Shown: piece by piece, positions 15,573 through 35,046 of the stretch
Layout of the letters: every line of letters begins with the position of its first letter
Position numbering within the stretch: the stretch's first letter is position 1
DNA from: Acidimicrobiales bacterium
GTDB taxonomy: Bacteria; Patescibacteriota; Minisyncoccia; Phycocordibacterales; UBA918
DNA length: 64,000 nucleotides
Assembly: GCA_047638595.1 (NCBI GenBank)
Contig: JBLIMJ010000002.1
Span: 640-64,639 of the forward strand
Direction: 5' to 3'
Notes under the pieces: generated by a model
The model's database searches: none
The model's input: the letters and a program-made list of their open reading frames with translations, nothing else
Told to the model about the DNA's origin: nothing
Program-made: the position numbers and the translations under genes

Positions 15573-15626
15573 CGCGGAAAGTACCCGAAGGCCACCTTGG
15601 TCTTCGGGAATTTTTATACATATAAC

Positions 15627-16149: not shown

Positions 16150-16205
16150 AATAATTAATTGCTTTCGCAAACTTGCTAGATTGCTTTATATGCAAGACGT
16201 GTGAG

Positions 16206-18585: not shown

Positions 18586-18662
18586 CAGGATCTGTTCAGG
18601 TTATCGCTATTTTTACTAAGGTAAAAATAGCTGGTAACCTTCATTAAGACCTCACGAAGAAT
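18586..18662. repeat. copy A of 77-bp structured element (contains GCTATTTTTAC-TAAG-GTAAAAATAGC hairpin) downstream of fusA
   Basis: identical to 18694-18771. Confidence 0.8.
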
Positions 18663-18693
18663 ACTCCTCTGTTTCTTCGGTCTTTTAATCCTT
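18663..18693 (-). pseudogene. duplicated, frameshifted remnant of the fusA 3-prime end
   Basis: ctcctctgtttcttcggtcttttaatcc versus the true 3-prime end at 18807-18833 (cttctgtttcttcggtcttaatgcc). Confidence 0.6.
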
Positions 18694-18771
18694 ACAGGAT
18701 CTGTTCAGGTTATCGCTATTTTTACTAAGGTAAAAATAGCTGGTAACCTTCATTAAGACCTCACGAAGAAT
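18694..18771. repeat. copy B of the 77-bp element
   Basis: identical to copy A. Confidence 0.8.
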
Positions 18772-18806
18772 AAAAATAAGGCACCCTGCGGGGTGCCTTA
18801 TTTTTA
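18772..18806 (-). terminator. fusA intrinsic terminator AAGGCACCC-TGCG-GGGTGCCTT with flanking A/T runs (bidirectional)
   Basis: abuts fusA stop codon. Confidence 0.7.
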
Positions 18807-20993
18807 TTCTTCTGTTTCTTCGGTCTTAATGCCTCTCGCTGCTTTAATTTCGGCAGCGACATTTGGTGGTACTACTTCGTAGTGGTCAAATTCCATAGTC
18901 ATTGAGGCGCGTCCTTGTGTCATAGATCGTAGTGAGTTTGTGTATCCGAACATTTCAGAGAGTGGTACTTTCGCATTTACGATAGTCTTTCCTCCGAGTT
19001 CTTCAGAACCTTCAACCTGTCCACGCTTAGAAGAAATGTTTCCATTTACGTCTCCTAAGTATTCTTCTGGTGTTCGTACTTCAACCTTCATCACCGGTTC
19101 AAGGAGTACTGCGCTTGCACGCTTGGAAGCTTCTTTAAATGCATTGATTCCTGCAAGTTTGAAGGCGATTTCACTTGAGTCCACGTCATGGTATGAACCA
19201 TCGTAAAGCTCAATTGATACATCTTCCATCTTGTATCCAGCAACCTGCCCTCTCGCCATAGCTTCCTTACACCCTTTCATTACTGGAACAATGTATTCCT
19301 GTGGAATCACACCTCCCTTAATACTATTGATGAATTCGAAATGGTCTTCTCGCGTTACATTCTTTGCAAGCTTCTTTGGTTCACCATCCTCATCTAACTC
19401 TAGTGCTTCAAGCGGCTTGATTCGAATCTTCACGTGACCGTATTGCCCACGTCCACCTGACTGCTTGATGTACTTGTGTTCTGCTTCGGCCTCTCGTTGG
19501 ATTGTTTCTCGGTATGCTACTTGTGGCTTACCAATATCCGCTTCAACACCAAACTCTCGTTTCATTCGGTCAACAAGAATGTCGAGGTGAAGCTCACCCA
19601 TACCAGCAATAATAGTTTCAAGTGTTTCAGGATCAGAAGATACCTTAAATGTAGGGTCTTCATCAGAAAGTCGTTTAAGTGCCATTCCCATTTTTTCCTG
19701 GTCTTGCTTTGTTTTAGGCTCTACACGCACTGCAACCACTGGTTCAGGGAACGTAATAGTTTCAAGGAGCATCGGTGCATCCACATCACAAAGTGTATGT
19801 GAAGTTTTTACTTCTTTAATTCCTACCGCTGCAGCAATCTCTCCTGCGTACACTTCATCCACCTCTTCTCGTTTGTCTGCCATAAGTCGTACGATTCGTC
19901 CTACTCGTTCTTTGTTTCCAGTAGATGAGTTCATGATGTATGTCCCAGACTTCATCGTACCTGAATACACACGGAAGAATGCAAGTTGCCCCACAAACTT
20001 ATCGTCTTGTAGTTTGAACACAAGAGCGCTCAATGGTTCATCATCAGAAGGTTTCCGTGTGATGACAGTTTCTTCATCTTTGATGTCAGTTCCTTGAATA
20101 TCAGGAAGATCAAGTGGAGACGGGAGGTAGTCAACCACAGCATCAAGTACAAGTTGTACACCGATGTTCTGCAATGCAGTACCGGCCATAACAGGGAAGA
20201 TTTCATTTGCGAGCACCGCAACACGAAGTACTCGTTTCAAGTCTTCGTTTGAAGGTTCATTTCCTTCAAGAAAAGCTTCCATAAGCGCATCATCATGCTC
20301 CACAACTCGTTCAACAAGTTCCGCTCGACGTGCTACTGCTTCTGCAACAAACTCTTCAGGAATGTCCGCTTCAGTAACATCTGTTCCCATTTCTCCTGAA
20401 AAAGAGTACGATTTCATAGTGATAAGGTCTACCACTCCACGCATGTCATTTTCTGCCCCCATAGGAATCTGGATTCGGCACGCTTTCTTTGAAAGACGTT
20501 CTTCGATAGATTTAACCGCAGCATCGTAGTCAGCTCCCATTTTGTCCATCTTGTTTACAAAACAGATTCGTGGCACTGCAGCTTCGTCAGCATACCCCCA
20601 GTTTGTTTCAGTCTGTGGCTCTACACCAGCAGCACCATCAAATACCACAACCGCACCATCAAGTACACGCATAGAACGCTTTACCTCTGCAGTAAAGTCG
20701 ATGTGACCTGGAGTATCAATAATGTTAAAGGTGAACTTTTTATCGTTATTGTCTCGATCTGTTTCTAGTGTTTTTGACCAGTTACAAGAAATAGCAGCAG
20801 AAGTAATAGTAATACCACGCTCTCGTTCTTGGTCCATCCAGTCAGTGACTGTTTCACCGTCGTGAACTTCACCAATCTTATGACTCATTCCTGTATAGAA
20901 AAGAATTCGTTCAGATGTAGTTGTTTTACCAGCATCAACGTGCGCAACAATACCGAAGTTACGTAGTCGATCTAGTGGAAATGCTCGTGCCAT
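18804..20993 (-). CDS. fusA: elongation factor G
   Basis: 729 aa; AHVDAGKTTT, DTPGHIDF, NKMD. Confidence 0.97.
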   Translation of the reverse strand: MARAFPLDRLRNFGIVAHVDAGKTTTSERILFYTGMSHKIGEVHDGETVTDWMDQERERGITITSAAISCNWSKTLETDRDNNDKKFTFNIIDTPGHIDFTAEVKRSMRVLDGAVVVFDGAAGVEPQTETNWGYADEAAVPRICFVNKMDKMGADYDAAVKSIEERLSKKACRIQIPMGAENDMRGVVDLITMKSYSFSGEMGTDVTEADIPEEFVAEAVARRAELVERVVEHDDALMEAFLEGNEPSNEDLKRVLRVAVLANEIFPVMAGTALQNIGVQLVLDAVVDYLPSPLDLPDIQGTDIKDEETVITRKPSDDEPLSALVFKLQDDKFVGQLAFFRVYSGTMKSGTYIMNSSTGNKERVGRIVRLMADKREEVDEVYAGEIAAAVGIKEVKTSHTLCDVDAPMLLETITFPEPVVAVRVEPKTKQDQEKMGMALKRLSDEDPTFKVSSDPETLETIIAGMGELHLDILVDRMKREFGVEADIGKPQVAYRETIQREAEAEHKYIKQSGGRGQYGHVKIRIKPLEALELDEDGEPKKLAKNVTREDHFEFINSIKGGVIPQEYIVPVMKGCKEAMARGQVAGYKMEDVSIELYDGSYHDVDSSEIAFKLAGINAFKEASKRASAVLLEPVMKVEVRTPEEYLGDVNGNISSKRGQVEGSEELGGKTIVNAKVPLSEMFGYTNSLRSMTQGRASMTMEFDHYEVVPPNVAAEIKAARGIKTEETEE

Positions 20994-21338
20994 AATAATG
21001 TTAAATATGTGTGTAAATAATAAATCACGTAAAAAATAACTCTTACGCGCCTCCCTTCACCTTTTCATATACATATATATGTATTTCGTCGGAGAAAGTA
21101 ATTGTCCAAGGACAAAGTGCGAGTACTATACGGCATTTATCCCATTTAAGCAACGAAATAATACCCTTAAATGACCACTTAAAGCGAAGCTTTTAAGTGG
21201 TCAATTATGTGCAACATACATCCCAATACCTTTGGTTTAGGATGAATATTGACTTTTATACTAAAATATGATATAATACAAATAGGTTAAGGGAACGAAT
21301 ATTCACTTCGTTTTCACCCCGAGCAACAGGAGATCATC

Positions 21339-21779
21339 ATGATTCGCTCAATTGTACTTTCTATCACTATCTTCCTTGGCCTGTCTGGCCAGACTTACGC
21401 ACAGAGCATATCTGAAGCAGACATGGAAACGTCTTTCAACACCGGAAAGATGGTCGACAGCCGTATCGTCGATCAAGAATTTACTCGCATTGGTGGCACG
21501 GTGCCGCTCATGCTGGTCATGTTCGAAGATCCGAACGTAGCAGAACTCGAAAAGCTTTGTCTCGATGTCTGCATTTTTGAATTCACTGCCGTTGAGGGCG
21601 ATATGATGCTATCAGGCATCAAGGCAAATCCCGACGACATGCTGGATCTTCACATCTACAAAGCGTACATGGCCCTGCGTCACGTCGAGGCTCATGACAC
21701 AGGTAGTTTTTTCCACCAAGTGAGGAAGATTGCGAGGGGAAACCCTAGCATCCTTGTCGTGCGAGAGCCAAACAGCTAA
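21339..21779 (+). CDS. hypothetical secreted protein (signal peptide)
   Basis: MIRSIVLSITIFLGLSGQTYAQ. Confidence 0.5.
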   Translation: MIRSIVLSITIFLGLSGQTYAQSISEADMETSFNTGKMVDSRIVDQEFTRIGGTVPLMLVMFEDPNVAELEKLCLDVCIFEFTAVEGDMMLSGIKANPDDMLDLHIYKAYMALRHVEAHDTGSFFHQVRKIARGNPSILVVREPNS

Positions 21780-21933
21780 ATAATTGACAGGGCGGCCAGC
21801 GGCCGTTCTGTCACAACACGCGCTGTGTTTTCTAAAAAGAAAACCTCTGCGTGTTTTCTTTTAGATATGACATCGCATACCTTGACTTTATATAAAAATA
21901 TGTTATTGTATTCTTCTCAAATAGAGAAACGTT

Positions 21934-22512
21934 ATGAAACACATCATCAATCCCTTCACTTATTTACGTGAGGCATACACAGCTGCCCTCCAATCCTTTG
22001 AGTCAGAAGTTTCTCGAAGTTTTGCAGTGACTGCAACAGTGCTTATCCCTGTTTTTGTCGTACTCTTATTCTCTTCAACACTCACTAGTGCCGCACTCTA
22101 TGTATTCCCTGCGAAAACCGTAGACATCCAAGCGATACAAATTGATGTAAATACAGTTGAAATTACCCTCCAAGGTAATCAAACACTTTTAAATGCTGCA
22201 GAAGTAGAGTTTTATTTTGACCCGACATACGTACATGTATATGACGTGAGGCTATCGGAAAGCCTTTGCGAAGAACAATTTATCATTACAAAAGAAGTCG
22301 ACAACATTACTGGTCGTATCTTCTACCAGTGTGGGACAGTGACTCCATTTGCGGGACAAGATACAACCATTGCAACACTGAAAGTTATTCCGCTAAAAGT
22401 TGGTACTTCACCACTTTCATTTGGAAGCAATACAAACGTACTTGCACATGACGGATATGGCTCAAACGTCACCAAAGATCGTCTTGCAAGCATCTTCCAG
22501 TTCTCTGACTAA
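21934..22512 (+). CDS. hypothetical membrane-anchored protein
   Basis: N-terminal TM helix; ORF. Confidence 0.5.
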   Translation: MKHIINPFTYLREAYTAALQSFESEVSRSFAVTATVLIPVFVVLLFSSTLTSAALYVFPAKTVDIQAIQIDVNTVEITLQGNQTLLNAAEVEFYFDPTYVHVYDVRLSESLCEEQFIITKEVDNITGRIFYQCGTVTPFAGQDTTIATLKVIPLKVGTSPLSFGSNTNVLAHDGYGSNVTKDRLASIFQFSD

Positions 22513-22686
22513 AGAAAGCATGCAAAAACTTAAACACGTAACGGATTGCTCCGTTACGTGTTTTTTGACATCAGAAGCTTTTATTACTAGTCACAGCAAT
22601 CATCCATTCTCTGAAGTAACCAAGGTAAGATATATAAATGAGGAGTTGATGCTCCAATAAGTTCATCAAACCTGGGAGGTTTTATA

Positions 22687-23073
22687 ATGCGACATATACT
22701 TACTGCCCTTTGCTTAATGACATTTTCGTTTAGCCAGGCACACGCTGGCTCTGTGGATGAAGAATACATTTGGCTGCCAAAGGAACATACTGTGTGCATG
22801 ACACTCACTGGTCTTGAAGACACAGTCACGGAAGTGAGTTTTGCTGATTGCGGTACCATACCGTACGAAATGCGATTTAGGGTTGCGAACAAAACTGATG
22901 GGAATAATGGATTCAAACTTCTGAGTCTGGAATATATTTTTGTCGCCATTACCGAAGATGGCACAAGTATCGCATCAACAGAGATTCAAGTTCTGTACAG
23001 CATGGATCCACAACCAACTGATGATACAAGCGTATCAAAAGTATTTGTTGGTACCAAAAATATAAATCCTTAA
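22687..23073 (+). CDS. hypothetical secreted protein
   Basis: signal peptide MRHILTALCLMTFSFSQAHA. Confidence 0.5.
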   Translation: MRHILTALCLMTFSFSQAHAGSVDEEYIWLPKEHTVCMTLTGLEDTVTEVSFADCGTIPYEMRFRVANKTDGNNGFKLLSLEYIFVAITEDGTSIASTEIQVLYSMDPQPTDDTSVSKVFVGTKNINP

Positions 23074-23077
23074 ACAC

Positions 23078-23150
23078 GGAAGTGACCAAAGTAAAAATGA
23101 ATTTTTACTTTGGTCACTTCCCCTCCGCGCTTAAGCGCGGTTTTTGTTTG
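23078..23150 (+). terminator. two consecutive hairpins (21-bp stem GGAAGTGACCAAAGTAAAAAT.., then CGCGCTTAAGCGCG plus T-run)
   Basis: read from sequence. Confidence 0.65.
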
Positions 23151-23206
23151 AAAGAAATATCCCTCTCCTCCCGTATAATGAAAGTAATACTTAGTAACAA
23201 TTCTTT

Positions 23207-25288
23207 ATGAAGCAGAGCTTATACGACATAGTAGTAATCGGCGCAGGCTCAGGAGGTCTTACTACCGCAGTTGGTTTTTCCAAAGTTGGAAAGAAAGTTC
23301 TTCTTGTGGAACGTGAACATATCGGTGGAGAGTGCACTAACTCAGGGTGTATTCCAAGTAAAGCGCTTCTGCATCATGCGAAGAGTTATCATGCTGCCAA
23401 ACAGATTTCAGGACAGAGTAAAGAAGGTGAAACCTACCGTACAGAAGCATTCAACTACGTGCGAGACAAAGTAAATAGTATCCTTGAAGAAGAAACGCCT
23501 GAAACATTTGAAAAACTGGGTATTGATGTAGTCATGGGGGAAGCCGTGTTTCATACAAAGTGTTCAATCAAGGTAAATGGCACAACCTACGGGTATAAAA
23601 AAGCTATCATCGCCACCGGCTCCTCCCCACAAATGATCAAAGTCGAAGGACTTAAGACATCGGATGTCTTAAGTAATCAAAATATCTTTGAGTTGGACGA
23701 TGTGCCGAAGAAACTCCTTATCATCGGTTCAGGACCAATCGGAATGGAGATGGGGCAAGCTTTTGCAATGCTCGGAAGTAAGGTGACTATTGCAAGTATC
23801 GATAGTCGTTTCGCACGACTTGAAGATGATTCTATTTCACCAATCATTCAAGCTGAGTTTGAAAAACTTGGTATAGATATTCATCTTAATGCATTTATTC
23901 AAAAGGTGGAAAGTGACGAGGCTGTTTTCGAGCTGAAAGAGAACGATGAAGTAACTGGTGAAGTTACAGTGCCATTCGATAAAGTACTTATCGCCATCGG
24001 CCGAGTGCCGAACCTCCCAGAAGGCTTGGAGATTGCTGGAATCAAGTCAGAGTCGTACGGTATAGTCGTCGACAAGCAACACCGTACCAGCAATAAACAT
24101 GTCTATGCGGTAGGTGACGTCGCGCAGAAACTGAAATTCACTCACACTGCTGACGACATTGGGAGACAGGTGGTCATGCATGTCCTTAGTAAAGGATGGG
24201 TACGTTTAAATACTAAAAAAGCAGTACCTAAAGTTACCTACACAAAACCCGAGATGGCCCAAGTCGGTCTTTCTCACACAGCAGCGTTAGAAAAATATTC
24301 TGCGCAAGAAATAATGCGTATCGAAGTACCGTACACAGCAAACCATCGCGCAAACACCGACAATGAGACTGATGGTCTAATGATTGTCATCGCACGGCGA
24401 TTGAATGGTGCCGTACTTGGAGCACATATCATCGGCGTATCTTCCGGAGAAATGATTTCTGTTTTTACACTCGCTATCGACCGCAAGATTTCCATGTGGC
24501 AACTACGGCGAATTATCTTCGCCTACCCTACCTACTGCCTTCTGATTAAAAAAGCAGGTGACTATTTCTTTGCACAACAAATTGCATCACTGAAAAATGA
24601 TTTATTATATCAATTCAAAAAACATGCACCAAAAATAATTGCACTCATCTTTTGGGGAACTATCCTCTATACATTCCAACAGTATCGAATCGATAACAAT
24701 CTTTCATATCAAGCCATACTATTGCAAGGGCTTCACTTCTTTACGAGCACCATGTACGGACCGTTGGTATACATGGGACTCTACGCCATTCGTCCAATCA
24801 TCCTCTTCCCTGCAACACTTCTCACCGCACTCTCTGGGGCACTGTTTGGTTTCTGGTGGGGTATCGCGTACACCATCTTGGGAGAAAATGCTTCCGCAAA
24901 CTTCGCATACTGGATTGGTCGTTTCTTCGGCAAAGACTTACGCCTTGAAGACTCACTCATTGGCAACTGGGTAGAAGCACTACGAAAAAATGGTTTTGGG
25001 ACAGTGCTCCTTATGCGTCTTTTTTATGTGCCATTTGATCTGACTAACTATGGTTCTGGTATTGTGAAAGTGAAATGGAGTAAATATGCATTAGCAACTG
25101 TCATCGGCATCATGCCAGGACTCACAACCTTTGTTGCACTTGGTGCTGCTGTCGATATAGAAGAGTTTCAAATGAATGGTCTCACCTTCGATGCCCTTGA
25201 CCCAAAATTCCTCGCTCTTTCAGCAACAATATTCATCGTTTCGTTGCTACTTTCAAAATTCTTAAAGTATTGGAGAGCAAAACTATAA
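23207..25288 (+). CDS. bifunctional protein: N-terminal class-I FAD-dependent pyridine nucleotide-disulfide oxidoreductase (about 450 aa, CTNSGC redox disulfide, dihydrolipoamide dehydrogenase/mercuric-reductase-like) fused to C-terminal DedA/TVP38-TMEM64 membrane domain
   Basis: GAGSGGLT, GGECTNSGCIPSK, NADH-binding GSGPIGME, dimerisation domain; C-terminal 6 TM with DedA-like signature. Confidence 0.8.
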   Translation: MKQSLYDIVVIGAGSGGLTTAVGFSKVGKKVLLVEREHIGGECTNSGCIPSKALLHHAKSYHAAKQISGQSKEGETYRTEAFNYVRDKVNSILEEETPETFEKLGIDVVMGEAVFHTKCSIKVNGTTYGYKKAIIATGSSPQMIKVEGLKTSDVLSNQNIFELDDVPKKLLIIGSGPIGMEMGQAFAMLGSKVTIASIDSRFARLEDDSISPIIQAEFEKLGIDIHLNAFIQKVESDEAVFELKENDEVTGEVTVPFDKVLIAIGRVPNLPEGLEIAGIKSESYGIVVDKQHRTSNKHVYAVGDVAQKLKFTHTADDIGRQVVMHVLSKGWVRLNTKKAVPKVTYTKPEMAQVGLSHTAALEKYSAQEIMRIEVPYTANHRANTDNETDGLMIVIARRLNGAVLGAHIIGVSSGEMISVFTLAIDRKISMWQLRRIIFAYPTYCLLIKKAGDYFFAQQIASLKNDLLYQFKKHAPKIIALIFWGTILYTFQQYRIDNNLSYQAILLQGLHFFTSTMYGPLVYMGLYAIRPIILFPATLLTALSGALFGFWWGIAYTILGENASANFAYWIGRFFGKDLRLEDSLIGNWVEALRKNGFGTVLLMRLFYVPFDLTNYGSGIVKVKWSKYALATVIGIMPGLTTFVALGAAVDIEEFQMNGLTFDALDPKFLALSATIFIVSLLLSKFLKYWRAKL

Positions 25289-25352
25289 ACACAACATATA
25301 CCATAAAGGACGGAGAACACATCTCCGTCCTTTATTTTCAGAAACTGCTCAA

Positions 25353-25715
25353 TTAAGCAACTGGCCAGACTTTCCCTGAAATAACCCAAAAAGTACCTCC
25401 GATAATTCCTAGGATTAATATAAAACCTATAACTGCAAGTGTTATTCCTAAAACACTATGCTTTCTTTTTTTAGGTTCAGACTGTGCACTTTTAATGTCA
25501 CCTCCCTCAACAGTTTTTTCTGCTTCATTTTCTGTCTGTGCAGGTGCAGAGGTATCGGCCTCTACAGCAAAATCGTTACACGCTGTATACACGAGTTTAA
25601 TTTCTTCATCGGAATAGCCGGCTTCATGAAGTTCAGCTTGTATTTTTTCGTACGGGTATCCTATTTCGATACGTTCACGTACAGCATTTAATAATTGTGG
25701 ATCCAAGTCATTCAT
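25353..25715 (-). CDS. hypothetical protein with C-terminal TM anchor
   Basis: ORF. Confidence 0.45.
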   Translation of the reverse strand: MNDLDPQLLNAVRERIEIGYPYEKIQAELHEAGYSDEEIKLVYTACNDFAVEADTSAPAQTENEAEKTVEGGDIKSAQSEPKKRKHSVLGITLAVIGFILILGIIGGTFWVISGKVWPVA

Positions 25716-25784
25716 ATCTAATATTATGCCACACTAATGTACTGAGCTTCTATTTTATAAACAGAAACATAACCATCTAATCCT

Positions 25785-25816
25785 CAATGACAATTCTTTC
25801 TCGTTTTTCATCGACA
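25785..25816 (-). repeat. remote duplicate of the 3-prime end (last 12 codons and stop) of the AbrB-like gene at 26703-26888
   Basis: tcaatgacaattctttCtcgtttttcatcgac versus tcaatgacaattctttTtcgtttttcatcgac at 26719-26750; encodes VDEKRERIVIED*. Confidence 0.75.
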
Positions 25817-25924
25817 CTCTATTATTCTTCATAGCACTCAAGCCTGGGCAGACAGGCTATAATCCTTGACAATATTCATTTTGATTATATATTAGATTTG
25901 GAAGTATCATAGAAAGGAACTCCG

Positions 25925-26524
25925 ATGGGAACAGATCACAGCAACAGACCAAACATTCTCGACAACTTGATGGATCGCAGGACAATTGTGCTTGCCGATA
26001 AGATTACAAGTAAATCAATCGGCGAGATCTGCAATCAAATTCTGACTTTGCAGACAATCTCAAATGATGAAATATTTCTAATCATCCAAAGTGGTGGTGG
26101 TAATACGCACTCAGCACTGACCATGTGCGATATGATGACACATCTCATCACTGCACCGATTACTGGTATTGCACTTGGTGATTGCCACTCGGCTGCAACT
26201 TTCATCATGTTACATTGCGATACACGTATCGCTTTACCGCATGCAAAATTCATTATCCATTCTGGCACAATTAGTGGCGTCTCAACCCGCATGGATGATG
26301 CCGCGGAAGAAGAAGTGAAACATCTTCTTCAAGACATCCAGAGAACCTCAAAGGAGGTTGTGAAGGTTTATATGGATAGGCTTGGCAAAAGTAAGGCCCA
26401 AGTCGAAGCAATCATTGCTCGAGGTGACCAATCCTTCGACAACGCCCTTTCTGCAGAAGATGCCATGAAAATTGGTCTTGTTCAAAAAATCCAGACGGGG
26501 AAACTTCCCATATTTGGTAAATGA
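25925..26524 (+). CDS. ClpP-family serine protease paralog (divergent; Ser/His/Asp positions appear conserved)
   Basis: aligns with canonical ClpP at 60571: GDCHSAATF versus [15 protein letters not shown] versus MIHQPS; RTIVLAD..I..QIL..L. Confidence 0.65.
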   Translation: MGTDHSNRPNILDNLMDRRTIVLADKITSKSIGEICNQILTLQTISNDEIFLIIQSGGGNTHSALTMCDMMTHLITAPITGIALGDCHSAATFIMLHCDTRIALPHAKFIIHSGTISGVSTRMDDAAEEEVKHLLQDIQRTSKEVVKVYMDRLGKSKAQVEAIIARGDQSFDNALSAEDAMKIGLVQKIQTGKLPIFGK

Positions 26525-26544
26525 TTCTACCGAGGATTGAGAAT

Positions 26545-26570
26545 CCCGCGTTAAAGGCGGGGTTTTTTCT
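26545..26570 (+). terminator. CCCGCG-TTAAAG-GCGGGG plus TTTTTTCTTTT
   Basis: read from sequence. Confidence 0.65.
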
Positions 26571-26650
26571 TTTCCCTATCAAAGATACTAAAAGGATTGG
26601 GATTTATGCATACGTTTAGAAAATCATATAAGCACAATACATAATATCTC

Positions 26651-26688
26651 AAATACCTATCATACGATTAATCGTATGATAGGTATTT
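26651..26688. promoter_or_regulatory. perfect 17-bp-arm palindrome AAATACCTATCATACGA-TTAA-TCGTATGATAGGTATTT just 3-prime of the AbrB-like gene
   Basis: read from sequence; terminator or operator. Confidence 0.5.
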
Positions 26689-26702
26689 GTCTTTAAATAT
26701 CT

Positions 26703-26888
26703 TTACCCTACCCAATCTTCAATGACAATTCTTTTTCGTTTTTCATCGACGGTAATCTGCAGCTTTTGTTTTGACTGCCAGCGAAATAGACGCACTGCTT
26801 CTAAGGGGAGTGTGACGCTATAACTTTTTCCATTTGAAATTTTATTTAAAGACCGCACATTCTCTTCCCCTACCTTTCTTCGCGCCAT
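26703..26888 (-). CDS. AbrB/MazE/SpoVT-family swapped-hairpin DNA-binding protein (antitoxin-like, 61 aa)
   Basis: KSYSVTLPLEAVRLF..KLQITVDEKRKRIVIE pattern. Confidence 0.55.
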   Translation of the reverse strand: MARRKVGEENVRSLNKISNGKSYSVTLPLEAVRLFRWQSKQKLQITVDEKRKRIVIEDWVG

Positions 26889-27091
26889 AATAGTTTCATT
26901 ACACTTAATACATACATAGTATACCGTATCTTATAGAGAATCCTTGCTTTTATCCTTGTATTAAAGCAAGGATTCTTCTTAATATGATGACACATGTAGT
27001 TGTAAAAATATCAAGAGTGCTCTTTTGGCTATCACCAGGAGCTTGCTGAATACAAACCAAATACAAGAAACTGACCAACGGACCAGACAAA

Positions 27092-27119
27092 AAGGCGCGC
27101 AAGGAATCTTGCGCGCCTT
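27092..27119 (-). terminator. AAGGCGCGCAAG-GAAT-CTTGCGCGCCTT, T-run on minus strand
   Basis: perfect 12-bp stem. Confidence 0.55.
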
Positions 27120-27716
27120 ATCTATATCTACACCTGTGCCTTCTTGTCTTTCTTCGGTTTTTTTACTTCTTTTTTCCGGTCGTTGCCTTTTGCCATATTT
27201 AATTAATTATTTTTTACTTTGATAAGTATACTGCATCGGTGTTTCCAACAATTTCTCCTAGGAAAGGGAGGAATTGGGAAGAAAATTCACAATATGTCTT
27301 CCAGACATTTGCTCATTTCTCTTTTGTCATAACGTTGTACTTAGTACTAATAATGTATTCCCACTATTCTACTATAAATTTTTACATTATAAAATTAAGT
27401 TGTTTTCAGAAGTTCTTCAGACACCACATCCACTTCTCCAACACAGGTCTGAATCAGATATCCTGTTCTTTATCAAAAGTAATAACCTTCGCACAAAATC
27501 TATATTCTGTGCATTTAAAAACTGTAGTGTACGATAAGCATTACCTGAGTCTCAACCGCTATCCCTATCTCCACGACCGAGATGTGCTATGTATTTTTAT
27601 ATCTTCATTTTCTATAAGATACACATCGTGATTATGACCATGTTTAATAAGCGTTATTTTAAGTTTAAGAAATATCCCGCCTGGGATATAAAAGTATTGA
27701 GTTTATTCTCCGCAAT

Positions 27717-28136
27717 CTATAGCTTACATTCTCCTCGTGTATATGAAACGACACTACCTTGCGCACATGCACTACATGCATTGCCAAAAGTTTTTGGTAT
27801 CGGGTCACAGGGGGTGTTAACACATTGAACCTCCAGAAAACCACACACAGGTGCATACTCCATAGTGCACATCTCTGCACGTTTTTGTTTATCCGTGCAA
27901 ACAACCCCAAAAGTATCTGTCTTTACAGGAGGAATCTTATCATCGGTAACAATATCAATATCCTCAACGAGTGTTGAGGTTGAGTTGGGTGCTGATGCCG
28001 GGGTTGAAGTTGAAATTGGTTCCAGTATGGAATCTGGGGATGGCATCGAGGCTGGAGATGGTGCGAAAAAGATGACTGCCAATAGTGTCAGAAAAATACC
28101 TAACACAACAATTTTCTGTAGATTTTCCATATGCAC
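27717..28136 (-). CDS. secreted/anchored small protein with C-terminal Kazal-type serine protease inhibitor-like domain
   Basis: N-terminal TM; CTMEYAPVCG..C.NTPC....TFGNACSACAQGSVVSYTRGEC cysteine spacing. Confidence 0.55.
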   Translation of the reverse strand: MHMENLQKIVVLGIFLTLLAVIFFAPSPASMPSPDSILEPISTSTPASAPNSTSTLVEDIDIVTDDKIPPVKTDTFGVVCTDKQKRAEMCTMEYAPVCGFLEVQCVNTPCDPIPKTFGNACSACAQGSVVSYTRGECKL

Positions 28137-28544
28137 AAATTATCCTCTTTTATTTTAAAAAAGCAACATGCAAAAAGGCCACAGAAATTCCGTGACCTTC
28201 TACCTAAATCGCAAATTATTAAAATTTAAAATTTAATGTGACGCAAAATAGCATCATTTATCGATAGCCTACCTCAGCTTCAATACAAGCTGTTCTGGTG
28301 AAATACACCATACCGTAACTATCTACATAATATACTTTTTGGTTAATAATCCTTGTGGTCATCTTGACTCCTTATATAGTTTGAATTATAGAAAGCCAAG
28401 GGAATCATTCCCCTATAATGAACTTTCTACTTCCTACATTACCTCTATTATTTATTTTTATCAAGCAAAACTCGTGTCAAGGGGAACCCGTGACACTCTG
28501 ATAGACAACTCAGGATGCTCTCTAGATGGATCTTGTACAGGGTG

Positions 28545-30032
28545 TTACTTCTTATCTAAATCAAGAGTCTCATCAACATGAATCTGATCTACAAAGTCTG
28601 GCACATGGGATACAAGCATCATCGCTCCTTCATAGTCATGAAGTGCTTTTGCGATTACGGGAATATGGCGGAAGTTAATATGGTTGGTTGGCTCATCAAG
28701 AATCAACAGTCCAGGTTTCAGTAGCACTAAACGTGCAAATGCTACCAATCCTTTTTGCCCTTCAGAAAGAAGTCCGATGCGTGTTTTGATAATATCTCGA
28801 TTGATTAAAAAACCAGCAGCAACTGAACGCATGTCTTCTTCAATCTTCTTGTCCATAACCTCCATCAAACAGTCAAACACCGTCTGGTCAAAGTCGAGGT
28901 TTGAGAAGTCTTGACGGTAGTACCCGATAGTAACTCCAGGGGTTACTTCCTCACCAGTTGCATGCCCTGACGCTAGTGACTCAAGTAGTGTTGTTTTTCC
29001 AATACCATTGGGACCGACTATTTGTAAGTGACGCCCGCGCTTAAGCACGAGGTCACAGGGTACATCTTTAGGGTTGTGATTACGGATTACTTTATATGAA
29101 GTAAGTTTGAGTATATCCGTAGGGATATCTGTTTGTACAGGAATAGTAAAAGAACGAATAGTTTTATCTTCTTTTCGGACGTCTACTTTATTCTCTTCAA
29201 AGTCATCAACCTTTTCACGCATACGCTTTGCGACCATACGCATACCTCCCCCCTTGTTTGCAAAGAAGTTTGCCTTGTCTTTGTTTGCCTGAATCTCTTT
29301 TTCAAGTTGTGCATTTTTTCGTTTTTCCTTGTCCACCCGTAGCGCAATCTCTTTGATTACGTCATTGTAGTTTCCATCATACTGTTCAACCGTTCTATTT
29401 TGTGTATTTAAGTACAACACTCCCTGTGTGAAAGCATTAAGGAAAGCGGAATCGTGAGAAATAACAATAACGGTCTTCCTATATTCTCGAAGGAATTCTG
29501 TAAGGTGCTCAATCCCCTCTGTATCAAGGTTGTTGGTCGGCTCATCAAGAAGAAGTACGTCTGGATTTTGAATAAGTGCAGATGCCAGGAGGAGTCGTGC
29601 TTGCTGACCGCCGGAAAAACTTCCGATGATACGCTCCTTAAATGGCGCAACCATTTCAGGGTTCTTTGGAGCAAGATTTACCACCTCAAGAATATCGTCA
29701 ATCTTTGGGTCGATATCGTACACCTTTTCCTCAAAACACTTTTCAAAAAAAGCTCGGAGTGTTAACTCTAACTCGTCACGGGGGATTGTCTGACGTGAGA
29801 TAGCAATACTTGTTCGCGGCATGATGTTGATGTCTCCCAAGTCAGGCTTAAGAACGCCGGTGATAAGCGCAAAGAGTGTACTCTTCCCTGCACCGTTTTG
29901 GCCCATGAGTGTAAATTTCGCTCCTCGGCGAACAGAAAAACTCGACTCGATAAGAATCGGCTTTGTAGCATCGTGTTCATACGATACGTCATTGAATGAT
30001 ATGAGTCCTGCAGCTTTTGACATAGTGGGCAT
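28545..30032 (-). CDS. ABC-F family ATPase (two tandem ABC domains, no TMD)
   Basis: two Walker A (GQNGAGKST, GPNGIGKTT), two LSGGQ-type signatures (FSGGQQ, LSEGQK). Confidence 0.85.
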   Translation of the reverse strand: MPTMSKAAGLISFNDVSYEHDATKPILIESSFSVRRGAKFTLMGQNGAGKSTLFALITGVLKPDLGDINIMPRTSIAISRQTIPRDELELTLRAFFEKCFEEKVYDIDPKIDDILEVVNLAPKNPEMVAPFKERIIGSFSGGQQARLLLASALIQNPDVLLLDEPTNNLDTEGIEHLTEFLREYRKTVIVISHDSAFLNAFTQGVLYLNTQNRTVEQYDGNYNDVIKEIALRVDKEKRKNAQLEKEIQANKDKANFFANKGGGMRMVAKRMREKVDDFEENKVDVRKEDKTIRSFTIPVQTDIPTDILKLTSYKVIRNHNPKDVPCDLVLKRGRHLQIVGPNGIGKTTLLESLASGHATGEEVTPGVTIGYYRQDFSNLDFDQTVFDCLMEVMDKKIEEDMRSVAAGFLINRDIIKTRIGLLSEGQKGLVAFARLVLLKPGLLILDEPTNHINFRHIPVIAKALHDYEGAMMLVSHVPDFVDQIHVDETLDLDKK

Positions 30033-30114
30033 TATCCTACCTTATTCTGATAGAAAAGAAAGGTGGCCCGCCGGAAATGTCCGGACGGGCCACAAATGTG
30101 CATGCACGCAATAA

Positions 30115-30480
30115 TTATAGTTCGGCATACGAATCTTTTTCAAGTCGTATGTAGCTACCTGTCTGATGATCAAAATCAGAAATCTCTTTATCTGAAATCC
30201 TCTCATCGGGACTGAGATCGCGCAATGCACGTATCAACAACCCTTTTGCGACAGCGACATCATCATCACCCCAGACATAGTCGATTGCATGTTGTTGAAC
30301 CTCATTTTTATCCAAGATACGGACTTCAGAGCCAACCAATGCATCGCCAACAACGCTCGAGAGACCTTCTGGTGCGGCCACAATACGGGCGTGTCTGAAA
30401 CAGACATCTACCTGAGATTCTTCAGTAGACCTAACCGCTAAGTCATCATTGGTACTGTTCGGAACTTCGGTAAAATTCAT
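30115..30480 (-). CDS. hypothetical protein
   Basis: ORF only. Confidence 0.4.
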   Translation of the reverse strand: MNFTEVPNSTNDDLAVRSTEESQVDVCFRHARIVAAPEGLSSVVGDALVGSEVRILDKNEVQQHAIDYVWGDDDVAVAKGLLIRALRDLSPDERISDKEISDFDHQTGSYIRLEKDSYAEL

Positions 30481-30542
30481 CTTACTTCCTCCCTGTGCAA
30501 ATCAGTCTGACTATACCACATATATGTCTAAAGAAAAGAGTT

Positions 30543-31010
30543 TTAACCTTCTGAAGTAATCGCGTTGATAATATCAGTAATGGTTCCGTCGGTTGATAAA
30601 TCAACGCCAATACGTTTTGAGGTATTTAGTAAGAGTGTTTCAATGCCTGCTCGAGTCACTGCACCTGCTGCACTGTGAATCAACTTTGTCTCATCGAGTT
30701 TGTGTTCAAGCTGACCTTCGATGACTATATATTCCCCAATACTTGCTTCCACTCCATCAAAGTCAGTTTCGACTAACCCCGGCAATACTTTCAGGAACAT
30801 TGCAGGCTCATACCCTTCAATAGGCATACCGATTTTTTTACGTACCTCATCTTCAAGTGTGAAGCGAAATACATCTACAACATCAGCGTTAATTCTTTCA
30901 GGCGCTTCAGCCTGCTGTTCGGTCTTCACGAGCAAATCTAACCCACCAGAAAATACAAAAATTGCATTAAAAACAATAACAAGCGCTACGACAATGAGAA
31001 CATTCTTCAT
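30543..31010 (-). CDS. hypothetical membrane-anchored/secreted protein
   Basis: N-terminal hydrophobic segment. Confidence 0.45.
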   Translation of the reverse strand: MKNVLIVVALVIVFNAIFVFSGGLDLLVKTEQQAEAPERINADVVDVFRFTLEDEVRKKIGMPIEGYEPAMFLKVLPGLVETDFDGVEASIGEYIVIEGQLEHKLDETKLIHSAAGAVTRAGIETLLLNTSKRIGVDLSTDGTITDIINAITSEG

Positions 31011-31074
31011 GCCAAAAGTATACCACTTTATAAAAAGTCACCACAGAGCGCGCCTGACAGTATATAATGTAGGT

Positions 31075-32079
31075 ATGAAATGGATGTTTTCTATTTTTTT
31101 ATTTGGTGCTTTCATATTACCTGTTTTTGCGCAGGAGTTTAATGCTGGGTTTGTCCAAGGGCTATGGTACTCAGAGGAAAACGTTTTTGCAGATAAGACA
31201 GTCCGTGTGTACGTTGCTATACGAAACAATACTGGAAGTGATCTAACAGGAACTGTTAACTTCTATGATAATGACAAAAAAATTGGGAGTTCTGAAGTAT
31301 CGGCACTTGACGGCCGTATTATTGAAAGTTGGATTGACTGGACACCAACCGCAGGAGAACATACTGTATCAGCCTCTCTTTCTCGAACAAAACTTCATGC
31401 AGTGGGCGAGAGCGCTGAAGTAGTAACGGTCACTGACTCTCTTGCTAAAGATGCGCTTATTGTAGACTTTGATACTGATGACGATGGTGTCGGGAACGAA
31501 GAAGATGTTGACGATGACGGTGACGGCATTAGTGACGCAGTAGAAAAAAGAAACGGCACTGACCCTCTTGAGTTTAATGCACCAGAGCCCGAAGCTGTTT
31601 CCACTACCGAAGAAGCTGGTTCTACTGAAGATACACAAACTAGCACAAGTACCACAGTAGCTGAGGGTATCGAACATTATCTCACCCCTTCACGAGCAGA
31701 CTCAATGCTTGGAGGAATCACCCAGTTTGTAAATACAAAGAAAAAAGACTTAGACGAATACCGTCAGTCACGCGCGGTAGCAAGAGGAACTCAAACAGAA
31801 CCAGTCCCCGAAATAACTGTAAATGAAGATGGTTTTGGTGAAATCGTCCGCTCTACTGAACAGCTTGAAAAAGAACCCCCAAAAGTCGAAAAGCCCGGAG
31901 GATTTCTCGGTGATATCATCACCTTCATCGGCACTATCTTAGGAGGTATCTACACTGGTGTCCTTGCAGCCCTCTCCTTCTACCTCGGCCACCCCGTAAT
32001 CGTCCAACTCTCTCTCCTTTTCCTTATTCTTTTCGCAATGTTCAAAGTGGCCCAAAAACTCAGCGCTCGACCACAGTAA
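31075..32079 (+). CDS. secreted, C-terminally membrane-anchored protein with thrombospondin-type-3-like Asp-rich calcium-binding repeats
   Basis: signal peptide MKWMFSIFLFGAFILPVFAQE; DTDDDGVGNEEDVDDDGDGISD; C-terminal TM. Confidence 0.6.
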   Translation: MKWMFSIFLFGAFILPVFAQEFNAGFVQGLWYSEENVFADKTVRVYVAIRNNTGSDLTGTVNFYDNDKKIGSSEVSALDGRIIESWIDWTPTAGEHTVSASLSRTKLHAVGESAEVVTVTDSLAKDALIVDFDTDDDGVGNEEDVDDDGDGISDAVEKRNGTDPLEFNAPEPEAVSTTEEAGSTEDTQTSTSTTVAEGIEHYLTPSRADSMLGGITQFVNTKKKDLDEYRQSRAVARGTQTEPVPEITVNEDGFGEIVRSTEQLEKEPPKVEKPGGFLGDIITFIGTILGGIYTGVLAALSFYLGHPVIVQLSLLFLILFAMFKVAQKLSARPQ

Positions 32080-32088
32080 TATCTAATT

Positions 32089-32691
32089 ATGAACAAATCA
32101 TTGATACAATTTATTGTAAATTTGCTGATTGTTTTTTCATTAATATTCTCCAGTGAAAATAATCTTGCTTGGATACTATATGCACTGTTTGCTGAATGGC
32201 TAGTCTTAGTTGCGATAAGTCTCCATAAAGTATATTACGTAAATGCAAACAGGCACTCATTCTTATCAGCAGACGACCATGCAAGAGTATTTTGGGCAGC
32301 AGTGGGACTTGTTAACCTATTTAGTCTTTATGCCTTCATGATTCTTTCTGCACAGTTTGCACCGTTTAATATAGGTTATCTAACATATTTGTTACCCATC
32401 AGTATCTATCTGAGACAATACTGGACATACAAAAAATATTTTATAAAGGAAGGAAAGTGGCAAGACATAACCACAGGTAGTCTCATAAAAACATTTTACC
32501 TAAACATGTTTCCATTCTGTCTGCTAGGTGTATATACAATGTTATCAGAAATGACCACGTTACCCATATTAAATATTGAACTACTCTACTTTTTGATATT
32601 TATATACTTACTGAAGTTACTAATTGAGTTACTGGAAATAAACACCACTAGCAAACCAGGACCAGTGATCATGAATAGTAAGTTACATTAA
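32089..32691 (+). CDS. hypothetical polytopic membrane protein
   Basis: 5-6 TM helices. Confidence 0.5.
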   Translation: MNKSLIQFIVNLLIVFSLIFSSENNLAWILYALFAEWLVLVAISLHKVYYVNANRHSFLSADDHARVFWAAVGLVNLFSLYAFMILSAQFAPFNIGYLTYLLPISIYLRQYWTYKKYFIKEGKWQDITTGSLIKTFYLNMFPFCLLGVYTMLSEMTTLPILNIELLYFLIFIYLLKLLIELLEINTTSKPGPVIMNSKLH

Positions 32692-32771
32692 AATAATAGT
32701 GTCGGATTTTAGTACCACAACCGCCCCTTGCAAAAGTTTTATTTCCTAAGAGAGGCTTATATTTCCACCAA

Positions 32772-33302
32772 TTATAGCGGCTGCAGAGCAGCAAATATAG
32801 TAACTGCAAACGTTCCCATAAAAATTGCCAGATATATCCATTTCCAGCTTTTCTTTGAGAACTGCTCAGGTGAGTCTTTCAAGCTTTCGTACTCACCTTC
32901 CACCTGGATACCTTGGGCAATAAGTTTTTTAAGAAATTGCACTGCAAGATAACGCTCGTTTGACACAGTCTTAAGTGCAGAAAACTGATATCTATTGTCG
33001 CTGTATTTAATAGCCAGCAACTTAGGATTAGGGTTCCACGTTGTCATCTTCCGATCAAAATCAATTTTTTTATCATAAAATGCAGAATTTCTTTTAAGAT
33101 TCTTATAGTCTTCATATACTTCAGAAAATTCTGAAGTATTAAGTAGCTTAGTTTGACCACCAATAAAAGCTGCCTTTATCTCATGAGTATCACTGCTATC
33201 AATAATTGATTCAATAGTAGTAAGTGCTGGCTGTACATATTTTTGTGGATCAGGCTTATTGTTCATCATGTCTATTCTTACAGAACTTACACAAATTGTC
33301 AC
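32772..33302 (-). CDS. hypothetical protein with C-terminal TM
   Basis: ORF. Confidence 0.45.
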   Translation of the reverse strand: MTICVSSVRIDMMNNKPDPQKYVQPALTTIESIIDSSDTHEIKAAFIGGQTKLLNTSEFSEVYEDYKNLKRNSAFYDKKIDFDRKMTTWNPNPKLLAIKYSDNRYQFSALKTVSNERYLAVQFLKKLIAQGIQVEGEYESLKDSPEQFSKKSWKWIYLAIFMGTFAVTIFAALQPL

Positions 33303-33438
33303 TATCTACCCAGACTGTCTCACTCCACCCAAACAGCTTCCTCTTAAACCAATACCCTTCAGGTTGTCTTTAAGATACTTTATATAATTAGTGAACCATT
33401 TTTTCATATTTATAGTCTGTCGAAAATTAAAAGTTTTA

Positions 33439-33657
33439 CTGGGAACTGAGATTTTTTAAACGGGACAAGGTGAGCTGGACACAGCTCAAGACCTTTTGAG
33501 GTATTTTGAAGAATGAAAAATATCCAAAATATGTACAGTTTCTGTAAGAAAAAGGCCTAGAAATTTGTGAGTCGTACTTTGGGTACGGTGAACAAATTTT
33601 TGGACCTTTTAACGTCGTCTGGTGCAGAAAATGTCTGTTACCAATGGTAAATTTCAT
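33439..33657 (-). repeat. distal copy of rpsG-downstream module (includes degraded rpsG 3-prime end HW* and hairpin-in-hairpin with GAGTCGTAC..GTACGGTGAAC)
   Basis: aligns with 33763-33900 with a 90-bp insertion. Confidence 0.7.
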
Positions 33658-33762
33658 TTTGAAATGCACCCCAGGAGTATTTCCATTTTTATAGTCACCT
33701 CGTTCCTTAAAAATTGGGCAAATAAGAGGTAGCGAACAAAAAAAACATACAGTCAAATAGTA

Positions 33763-33900
33763 AGAATGCAACCTGGGAACTGAGATTTTCAAAAGCAGAC
33801 AAGGCAAAAGGCCCAAAAATTTGCGAGCCGTACATTGGTACGGTGAACAAATTTTTGGGCCTTTTAACGCCGTCTGGTGCAGAAAATGTCTGTTACCAGG
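33763..33900 (-). repeat. proximal copy of rpsG-downstream module overlapping true rpsG stop; contains perfect 18-bp outer stem AAAAGGCCCAAAAATTTG/CAAATTTTTGGGCCTTTT (33806-33865) with inner CCGTAC-ATTG-GTACGG
   Basis: read from sequence. Confidence 0.7.
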
Positions 33901-34366
33901 CGAAGTGGGCAAATGCTCGGTTAGCCTCTGCCATCTTGTGCGTATCCTCCTTCTTCTTCACTGCAGCTCCTTCTTCTTTAGCTGCAAGCATGAGTTCTGA
34001 AGCGAGTGCCTTGAACATTGGTACGCCCTTCTGACTTCGAGAAGCCTTGATGAGTGCACGTAGTGCAAGTGCGAGTCGTCGTTCGAGACGAACTTCGCGA
34101 GGTACTTGGTAGTTTGCACCACCAACACGTCGTGACCGTACTTCCATCTGCGGACCAGCGTTTCGAACTGCTGTATCAAAGATTTCAATTGGATCACCAC
34201 CACCTTCTTTTGCATCCTTTATTACATCGAATGCTCCATACACGATTTTTCGTGCAGTTTCTTTTTGACCGTTAAGCATCACGTAGTTGATGAGTCGTTC
34301 AACATCTACTGAACCAAACTTCATGTCTGGCTTGACGATTGGTCGTTTCTTTATTGGTCGTCGCAT
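33893..34366 (-). CDS. rpsG: 30S ribosomal protein S7
   Basis: [14 protein letters not shown].. Confidence 0.93.
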
Positions 34367-34552
34367 ATTGTTATTAATTAATGCGAATGAGAAATTGGCA
34401 TAAACCTATTTTCATTCTTCGCATAGTTTGGCTCCGAACCCTTGGGAGGTTGAACCGCGTCTACTATCTGTAGCGAATATAAACTATTTGTAATTGGCCC
34501 CGGGGACACCGTCCCCCTTCTAAATCTGAAAGAAATTGTTTTCTAGCGCGGC

Positions 34553-34632
34553 AGGCAAGAAATTTTTCATGAGTCGTACGTATAGTACGGTGAATGAAAA
34601 ATTATCGAAGCCTAACAAAGCTAGGAAGCAAT
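34553..34632 (-). promoter_or_regulatory. rpsL-rpsG intercistronic structured module (ggcaggcaagaaa plus AATTTTTCAT[GAGTCGTAC-GTATA-GTACGGTGA]ATGAAAAATT)
   Basis: same family as secY/rpsG terminator modules; position matches the known S7 autoregulatory site of str operons. Confidence 0.5.
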
Positions 34633-35046
34633 TTATTCAGATTTAGGCATTTTAGCTCCGTATCGTGACCGCCCTCGTCTCCGCGCATCCACACCTGTAG
34701 CGTCGTACTTTCCTCGTACAACAGTGTAGTTCACACCAATGTCCTTCACACGTCCACCTCGTACAAGTACCACAGAGTGTTCTTGTAGAGTGTGACCAAT
34801 ACCTGGGATGTACGCTGTAATTTCCTGACCGTTTGAAAGTCGTACTCGAGCAATCTTTCGAATCGCAGAGTTCGGCTTACGCGGAGTCTTTGTAGTTACA
34901 CGTGTACACACCCCTCGCTTAAATGGCGAGTTGTATGCGGTTGGTTTGTTCTCAATTGAGTTAAAACCAGACTGAAGAGCACCAGTTTTTGACTTGGTTG
35001 CTTTATCACGTCGTCGCTTTCTTGTTAATTGATTTATTGTTGCCAT
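34633..35046 (-). CDS. rpsL: 30S ribosomal protein S12
   Basis: [10 protein letters not shown]..; PKKPNSA-like region. Confidence 0.95.

Follow-up and report, generated by a model that had tools for sequence, protein, structure and literature searches.

Among bacterial syntenic markers, the str-S10-spc block of translation genes is the one treated as most stable, and it has a central place in the phylogenomics and binning of the candidate phyla radiation (CPR). In Gammaproteobacteria, multigene insertions have been described between these translation operons (PMC6735719). Here we analyzed a stretch of 64 kb (contig JBLIMJ010000002.1; referred to as the window) in which the str operon itself, rpsL-rpsG-fusA-tuf, is broken, as the order on the minus strand is rpsL, rpsG, 12.9 kb of other sequence, fusA, one small gene, tuf and rpsJ. 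The locus resembles the gammaproteobacterial insertions in that clusters are pulled apart by unrelated genes while the pieces keep their order and orientation and keep or gain their own promoter. It differs from them in that those insertions lie between operons, whereas the gaps described here lie inside str (rpsG-fusA and fusA-tuf) and inside S10/spc, and in that the host is a streamlined Patescibacterium whose gaps show rapid gene turnover. With a probability of about 0.8, the 12.9 kb between rpsG and fusA represents no mobile island but the current stage of a str operon break that is old, common to the clade and accompanied by gene turnover.

The four str genes are found on one strand and in the expected order, but they are not contiguous: about 16 genes separate rpsG from fusA, and one gene in 1.3 kb separates fusA from tuf (Table 1). 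A preliminary description of the window, made from its letters alone, had reported the broken unit together with the coordinates of its genes. Both are borne out by Pfam searches, which place rpsG and fusA 12,899 bp apart. The only gene of this series without a Pfam basis is rpsJ, whose counterparts in relatives are 56-87% identical and lie immediately downstream of tuf. The gap is dominated by genes for secreted or membrane proteins, and half of its genes lie on the strand opposite the operon; at least five proteins of the region carry N-terminal signal or anchor sequences, as read from their translations.

A search with elongation factor G (EF-G) yielded 80 species-representative loci (L numbers below), which were oriented on fusA with 10 kb of flank each. 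The window proteins were mapped onto these loci by tblastn, the open reading frames (ORFs) of the loci were clustered, and gap content was compared in 14 close loci. All 80 loci are from Patescibacteria (Paceibacteria, Nomurabacteria and Kaiserbacteria types), with best EF-G identities of 93, 91 and 88%, and the window organism is a Nomurabacteria-like member of Paceibacteria. A look-up of the exact EF-G sequence of the window returned no record. The distance between rpsG and fusA could be measured in the 70 loci that show both genes; its median is 395 bp, and it exceeds 1 kb in 15 and 5 kb in five, all five being relatives with an EF-G at least 74% identical. At this level of identity the gap measures 2.2 kb in L009, 6.0 kb in L010, 7.4 kb in L011, 8.3 kb in L001, 8.4 kb in L012 and 9.0 kb in L008, and lower bounds of 5.4-10 kb apply to L002, L003, L004, L006 and L007. 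The sole exception is L005, uninformative for the gap because its locus is cut off 217 bp upstream of fusA. In a neighbour-joining tree of EF-G from 28 selected loci, every gap larger than 0.8 kb falls in one clade that includes the window, and the outgroups have gaps of 0.01-0.8 kb. Upstream of fusA in L004, the closest relative (EF-G 93%), gdhA-, prs- and purA-like genes of a housekeeping type were recognized from translations; this is ordinary chromosomal sequence.

The source contig is labelled as an Acidimicrobiales metagenome-assembled genome (MAG) at NCBI, which must be a binning error. The public labels of L004, L009-L011, L017 and L068, with Patiriisocius, Saccharibacteria, Bacillota or Gammaproteobacteria appearing among the relatives, were judged wrong because all of these loci are Paceibacteria-like by EF-G and synteny.

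Relatives with an EF-G 74-93% identical share a backbone of five genes within the gap, in the same relative order and orientation: the genes for an ABC-F ATPase, a Kazal-like protein, a 22-aa peptide, an oxidoreductase-DedA fusion and a TSP3/Ig protein. ABC-F proteins are a family of ribosome-binding translation factors. The window protein has two ABC_tran domains, a linker that weakly matches ABC_tran_Xtn and, as expected of the family, no transmembrane domain, and its best NCBIfam models are all ABC-F; the best of them, NF000355 (ribosomal-protection-like ABC-F), scores 309 bits, below the cut-off of 380. The gene lies between rpsG and fusA on the operon strand in L001, L002, L007, L008 and L012 (69-74% identity), and tblastn did not find it in the gap of L009-L011, L013 and L014. 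The Kazal-like domain (residues 78-139) is present in the gap of L001, L002, L004, L006, L007 and L012 (44-66% identity, tblastn). The 22-codon ORF, which has no family match, is kept in L001, L002, L004 and L007 with synonymous changes and with differing terminator stems (alignment A2, terminator scan). The oxidoreductase-DedA gene is found at full length in the gaps of L002, L004 and L008, on the strand opposite fusA (53-74% identity, tblastn); it is adjacent to fusA in L002 and L008, one or two genes away in L004, and separated from it by 2.2 kb with three small genes in the window. The TSP3/Ig protein is also encoded between rpsG and fusA, on the opposite strand and at full length, in L009, L010 and L011 (40-42% identity, tblastn).

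Smaller shared features accompany the backbone. A 155-aa protein is homologous to the N-terminal part of the Kazal-domain protein in L001, L002 and L007. The small ORF families C13, C14, C15 and C22 occur in the gaps of relatives, C13 being intact in L001, L002, L004 and L008, and the window retains just a frameshifted remnant of C13. The names that the preliminary description had given to the gap genes hold for the ABC-F ATPase, the oxidoreductase-DedA fusion, the TSP3-repeat surface protein and a ClpP-like gene, all of which have the corresponding Pfam domains, with NCBIfam agreeing for ABC-F; the names Kazal-like and AbrB-like are weakly suggested by matches below threshold (Table 1).

The separated genes are accompanied by their own conserved signals. 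A terminator-like hairpin follows rpsG, in a long hairpin region also kept in L009, and a perfect hairpin follows fusA. The -10 box of the fusA promoter and the hairpin in the 5' untranslated region (5'-UTR) are kept in six genomes (the window, L004, L001, L002, L012 and L008), the hairpin with compensatory changes; the -35 box is seen in five of the six and lies outside the fetched stretch of L001. The hairpin stands at the beginning of a long fusA leader. The tuf promoter and a leader of about 180 nt, together spanning 17482-17692, are kept in the window, L003, L004, L084, L001 and L005, with several invariant blocks, and this leader may be a structured regulatory RNA. Alignments alone revealed both promoters; a simple promoter scan, which gave 38 sites against a shuffle mean of 43, missed them. 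The terminator after rpsG and the separate promoter of fusA make co-transcription unlikely, and the conservation of the fusA and tuf promoters across species argues for a long-standing separation. The spacer between rpsL and rpsG is also widened, measuring 180-420 nt across the close clade versus about 10-50 nt in distant relatives. It is 77-82% identical to the same spacer in relatives (blastn), and RNAalifold gave no consensus structure for it. A sequence resembling the start of rpsG is seen at about 34412-34425.

We propose that the ancestral rpsL-rpsG-fusA-tuf operon became three transcription units in the Nomurabacteria-like Paceibacteria clade before these species diverged. The first would be rpsL-rpsG, ending at the hairpin terminator; the second would be fusA with its own conserved sigma-70-type promoter, 5'-UTR hairpin and perfect terminator; and the third would be tuf with its own conserved promoter and long leader, running on into the S10 cluster. 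Transcriptional independence would have made both junctions permissive and presumably selectively neutral intergenic space in an otherwise tightly packed genome. The junctions would then have gained and lost genes piecemeal, in an order that we infer. The backbone would have been inherited, and the other half of the gap would result from lineage-specific turnover and local duplication, accounting for the three secreted proteins by fusA, the ClpP cassette, the AbrB-like ORF, three hypotheticals and the decayed C13 gene.

The preliminary description had taken the 12.9 kb for an island of accessory genes that had entered this genome's operon, and the site for a hotspot of acquisition, and had added that a gene order shared with relatives would speak against this. 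Genomic islands have been reported as common in Patescibacteria (PMC12455944), and like classical islands the region is a multi-kb block rich in secreted, membrane and hypothetical proteins, with a content that varies among relatives. About half of its genes have no counterpart in the gaps of relatives, one ORFan has a GC content at third codon positions (GC3) of 0.57, and a 37-nt repeat flanks a ClpP paralogue, two homologues of which sit in unrelated neighbourhoods. Codon fit is slightly lower in the gap genes (p = 0.006), against a reference set dominated by ribosomal genes. Unlike classical islands, the region has no integrase, tRNA target, att repeats or anomaly in GC or tetranucleotide composition, and its backbone is vertically shared. 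Integrases, recombinases and transposases were absent from the gap ORFs (Pfam, NCBIfam, PHROGs, PADLOC) and from the larger ORFs of the window (Pfam), and neither tRNA nor tmRNA was found in the 64 kb. No Rfam family was detected in the whole window at gathering score, and Rfam searches with relaxed E values (up to 1-10), covering 26.5-28.6 kb and 4.33-4.56 kb, gave chance-level matches only. For the genes specific to this genome, PHROGs and PADLOC returned only ClpP/head-protease and generic ABC-ATPase similarity, and readings as a phage remnant or a defence island were dropped on this basis. Boundary repeats near 21000 and 33440, GC skew and codon usage had been named as features by which an island could be checked. 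No repeat pairs 21.0 kb with 33.9 kb, local duplications being the only ones present, and there is no step in GC skew. GC is 0.40-0.42, and tetranucleotide correlation with the whole window is 0.91-0.93 in the region and 0.85-0.93 elsewhere, so that composition departs from the background by the slight codon shift and one outlier gene only.

An insertion in this genome or a very recent ancestor is opposed by the finding that the same site is occupied in all relatives with an EF-G at least 74% identical, except the cut L005. Since the split and the five-gene backbone are common to these relatives, the shared gene order that was to speak against an island is largely present, for the split and the backbone and not for every gene. 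The dedicated fusA and tuf promoters, conserved across species, point in the same direction, as does the conserved ABC-F gene, which belongs to a translation-factor family and not to an accessory surface function. We consider such an insertion improbable, and for the 12.9 kb as a unit the island interpretation is largely refuted; recent acquisition is limited at most to small sub-cassettes such as the ClpP segment and 21339-23073. The term hotspot remains appropriate for gene turnover, as the locus varies between relatives, and does not hold for an inserted island. A selected extension of the translation operon, in which the ABC-F gene and the Lys-rich 22-aa peptide were recruited and co-regulated and the rest are passengers, appears improbable as well. 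ABC-F proteins bind ribosomes, the gene shares the strand of the operon and is placed between rpsG and fusA in six genomes, and the 22-codon ORF with its own terminator is conserved in five, all of which would suit such an extension. It is opposed by the abundance of secreted and membrane proteins and of opposite-strand genes in the gap, by the rpsG terminator and fusA promoter that make co-transcription unlikely, by the ABC-F gene missing from the gap in L009-L011, L013 and L014, and by the peptide being without family match. An assembly or binning artefact, in which rpsL-rpsG and an unrelated region were fused in a chimeric contig, is hardly credible: the source contig is indeed mis-binned under its Acidimicrobiales label, but independent MAGs have the same arrangement, an independent Logan assembly reproduces 22.7-26.5 kb exactly, composition is uniform, and both flanks match the same Paceibacteria relatives.

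Several observations weigh against an old, clade-wide break followed by gene turnover. For nine of the approximately 16 gap genes no homologue was detected at the corresponding place in the 14 close relatives, and a substantial part of the gap could therefore be a comparatively recent acquisition. Gene order within the gap varies, the 155-aa gene of the window, for example, lying on the other side of ABC-F. L013 and L014, with gaps of about 1 kb, fall inside the sister subclade of the EF-G tree, so that losses or independent gains must be assumed. In L002, L004 and L007, which include the nearest relative, the 10-kb flank ends before rpsG; these three loci belong to contigs JACKGG010000003.1, JBLHQB010000009.1 and JBBTYP010000026.1, respectively. 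The poorer codon fit counts here as well, as does the signal-peptide protein at 21339-21779 (+), with its GC3 of 0.57 against a background of 0.33 +/- 0.04. The use of the promoters and terminators is inferred from conservation only.

Table 1. Features of the str region and of element E, with positions in the window unless a locus is named.
Feature	Position	Strand	Basis
rpsJ, start of S10 cluster	15796-16170	-	ORF translation and counterparts in relatives
tuf	16291-17481	-	Pfam
tuf promoter, TTGCAA-N17 (TG-extended)-TACTAT	17665-17692	-	Alignment A8
Cytosolic 187-aa protein, rare family	17765-18328	-	Profile/homologue search, AlphaFold, Foldseek
Perfect 13-bp terminator hairpin and T-run right after fusA	18766-18803	-	Inverted repeat I4, terminator scan
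fusA (EF-G)	18804-20993	-	Pfam, five EF-G domains
fusA 5'-UTR hairpin	21102-21115	-	Alignment A1
fusA promoter, TTGCTT-17 nt-TATAGT	21125-21153	-	Alignment A1
Three small secreted/membrane-protein genes (146, 192, 128 aa)	21339-23073	+	No family matches, none in relatives
Pyridine-nucleotide-disulfide oxidoreductase fused to DedA/VTT	23207-25288	+	Pfam Pyr_redox_2/Pyr_redox_dim and VTT (DedA), NCBIfam
Hypothetical, 120 aa, C-terminal transmembrane segment	25353-25715	-	Specific to this genome
Divergent ClpP paralogue	25925-26524	+	Pfam CLP_protease, E 3e-26; specific to this genome at the site
SpoVT/AbrB-like 61-aa ORF	26703-26888	-	MazE_antitoxin (MazE/SpoVT-AbrB), E 0.002, sub-threshold
22-codon ORF, Lys-rich peptide MAKGNDRKKEVKKPKKDKKAQV	27128-27196	-	Alignment A2; strong terminator at 27092-27119
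Secreted Cys-rich protein, Kazal-like C-terminal domain	27717-28136	-	Kazal_1, E 0.015, sub-threshold; tblastn
ABC-F ATPase	28545-30032	- (operon strand)	Pfam ABC_tran x2; NCBIfam NF000355; tblastn
Hypothetical acidic protein, 121 aa	30115-30480	-	Specific to this genome
Small secreted or anchored protein, 155 aa	30543-31010	-	tblastn 38-47%, ORF clustering
Secreted TSP3-repeat/Ig-like surface protein	31075-32079	+	Pfam TSP3_bac, Big_3_5
Hypothetical polytopic membrane protein, 200 aa	32089-32691	+	Specific to this genome
Hypothetical, 176 aa, C-terminal transmembrane segment	32772-33302	-	Specific to this genome
Frameshifted remnant of small membrane-protein gene (cluster C13)	33303-33407	-	blastn 73-85% to C13 5' ends
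Second copy of rpsG 3' end (last two codons TGG + stop), downstream sequence and hairpin	33549-33643	-	62-nt direct repeat
Terminator-like hairpin and T-run right after rpsG	33806-33860	-	Inverted repeat I2, terminator scan
rpsG (S7)	33893-34366	-	Pfam Ribosomal_S7, E 8e-54
rpsL-rpsG spacer, 266 nt	34367-34632	-	Hairpin at 34566-34598; block conserved in L001, L008, L012
rpsL (S12)	34633-35046	-	Pfam Ribosom_S12_S23, E 9e-31
M50 peptidase	35190-35828	-	Pfam
Element E copies in the window	4416-4500(-), 43658-43753(-), 1212-1299(+), 18687-18764(-), 18578-18655(-), 61194-61270(+), 33470-33552(+)		Covariance model
Element E copies in relatives	L004 12196-12451, L007 12155-12267, L009 12219-12306, L010 12250-12347, L011 12200-12304, L003 13654-13738		

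Among the genes specific to this genome, the 176-aa protein has no match in Pfam, NCBIfam, PHROGs or PADLOC and none by tblastn in the 14 close loci, and the signal-peptide protein at 21339-21779 is an ORFan that matches only itself among 5.8 billion clusters. The AbrB-like ORF has a single tblastn match, in L074. The ClpP paralogue scores far below the cut-offs of all NCBIfam ClpP models; its Ser and His can be aligned by eye and its Asp is uncertain. It lies between the copies of the 37-nt direct repeat (25779-25815 and 26714-26750), which duplicate the 3' part of the AbrB-like ORF. Apart from the identical protein of the source contig, 30 further homologues with 40-53% identity were found, the family being about 200-225 aa long. 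The unrelated neighbourhoods of the two homologues that were looked up both contain restriction-modification or nuclease genes. The canonical clpP is at 60550-61170, beside the genes for trigger factor and RNase Y.

The second junction of the str operon is also occupied more widely. The gene between fusA and tuf had been placed at 17765-18364; it is a real gene, with its start at the ATG at 18328. Three homologues were found among 1.8 billion cluster representatives, and one of them (41% identity) sits between fusA (88%) and tuf (93%) in L084. A profile of the family detected none of its members in the 80 species-representative loci. In 49 loci the fusA-tuf gap has a median of 1302 bp and is smaller than 400 bp in only seven; fusA and tuf normally stand apart in this group. 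An AlphaFold model of the 187-aa protein (pLDDT 84, pTM 0.80) weakly resembles type III secretion system chaperones or YbjN-like proteins in its predicted fold, with Foldseek matches to 4h5b and 3cxj (probability 0.96-0.99) and to 1xkp_C (0.80) at E values of about 0.002-0.1 and TM scores of 0.4-0.5.

The S10 and spc clusters are interrupted as well. rpsJ and rplC are split by 1.2 kb (14578-15795) with a plus-strand ORF inside, rplB and rpsS by 2 kb (9943-11907) carrying plus-strand genes for DUF2103 and DUF6280 proteins, rplE and rpsN by 0.67 kb (5663-6333), and rplF and rplR by 216 nt (4337-4552) that hold a copy of a repeat, element E, described below. Erosion is therefore a general trait of this genome rather than of a single hotspot, and the rpsG-fusA gap is the largest case of the erosion that affects translation operons generally in the lineage.

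Duplicated gene ends are found at several of these places. The end of rpsG is repeated over 62 nt with 97% identity (33582-33643 versus 33837-33898). Duplicated 3' ends were also seen for fusA (18662-18684 and 18805-18827), clpP (61148-61169 and 61285-61306) and rplB (11572-11734 and 11763-11924), and a duplicated 5' part for a YbaK-like gene (43750-43895 and 43500-43645). Upstream of the latter YbaK/ProX-like gene (43142-43645, -) stands a diverged and incomplete repeat of its first 50 codons or so (43638-43895, -), which runs into a copy of element E, and the two ORFs overlap. Element E or a hairpin often lies between the copies of such gene-end duplications.

Element E was found through a tandem repeat downstream of fusA. 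It is about 90 nt long (85-100) and has three hairpins, with the layout GTGAGAAAG, hairpin P1, CGCAAGAGGTTGCC, hairpin P2, CAACCTGNACAG and hairpin P3 with the loop CTGTAAG; the linkers GTGAGA..., CGCAAGAGGTTGCC and CAACCTGNACAG are conserved. Seven copies in the window were identified with a covariance model. E lies at terminators and at the 3' ends of genes, and six genomes of the clade (the window, L004, L007, L009, L010 and L011) have it immediately 3' of fusA. The stretch 18578-18764 (-) consists of two tandem copies of a variant without P1, with 81 nt identical, and a degenerate fusA 3' end between them. Tandem Repeats Finder reported nothing for the array downstream of fusA in L004 because the copies there are too diverged. 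The plus-strand copy near rpsG (33470-33552; model R1, 39.8 bits, E 3.5e-10) forms an insert (33471-33549) in the second copy of the duplicated segment downstream of rpsG, whereas the first copy runs on without a break, giving a filled and an empty site within one genome. Of at least 120 metagenome contigs matching the exact motif, 80 contained a total of 110 copies by the covariance model, and a scan of viral contigs for the motif gave 0 matches. Pairing is present in 93.8% of alignment cells versus 72.5% in shuffles and 37-53% in slid controls, with compensatory changes in 28 of 29 pairs, in an alignment that was fitted to the covariance model and hence favours the structure.

Small structured intergenic repeats such as REP/REPIN, MITE-like elements, BIME, RUP, Correia and RPE are the families with which E can be compared. 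Like REP/REPIN and MITE-like repeats, E is short, dispersed in many copies, mostly intergenic, present in both orientations, often clustered, and built of hairpins. It differs from them in having three hairpins with conserved linkers and in lacking both terminal inverted repeats of its own and a constant target-site duplication, nor was a transposase seen with it. A constant target-site duplication was rejected, as flanking direct matches of at least 10 nt occur in just 13% of copies. Several copies are accompanied by 20-140-nt duplications of the adjacent gene end (clpP, fusA, YbaK-like), which is not general. Five stretches between paired copies contain ordinary genes, with no transposase recognisable from the translations. 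An integron attC, a riboswitch, a self-cleaving ribozyme, a template/variable repeat pair of a diversity-generating retroelement and a group II intron end were rejected by inspection only. No Rfam 15 family matches E at gathering score. No description of such repeats in Patescibacteria was found in the literature, and on this ground the family appears to be previously undescribed; the finding of the split itself is modest.

A process linked to E that opens and enlarges the junctions of translation operons in this clade is a tentative and rather doubtful proposition. If it operates, E would either move as a non-autonomous element of a new kind or act as a hairpin that induces template switching, and it would represent a mechanism creating intergenic space in streamlined CPR genomes.

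An old break of the str operon would have a wider meaning for the group. A whole Paceibacteria clade has probably dismantled str-S10-spc into separate pieces under promoters of their own, and genes turn over fast at the junctions. This calls for caution in synteny-based annotation and with island predictors, which would report regions of this type as islands. New annotation targets in Patescibacteria are the promoters and leaders of fusA and tuf, the 22-codon gene and the unannotated structured repeat family, and the clade offers a natural system for studying operon decay in very small genomes.

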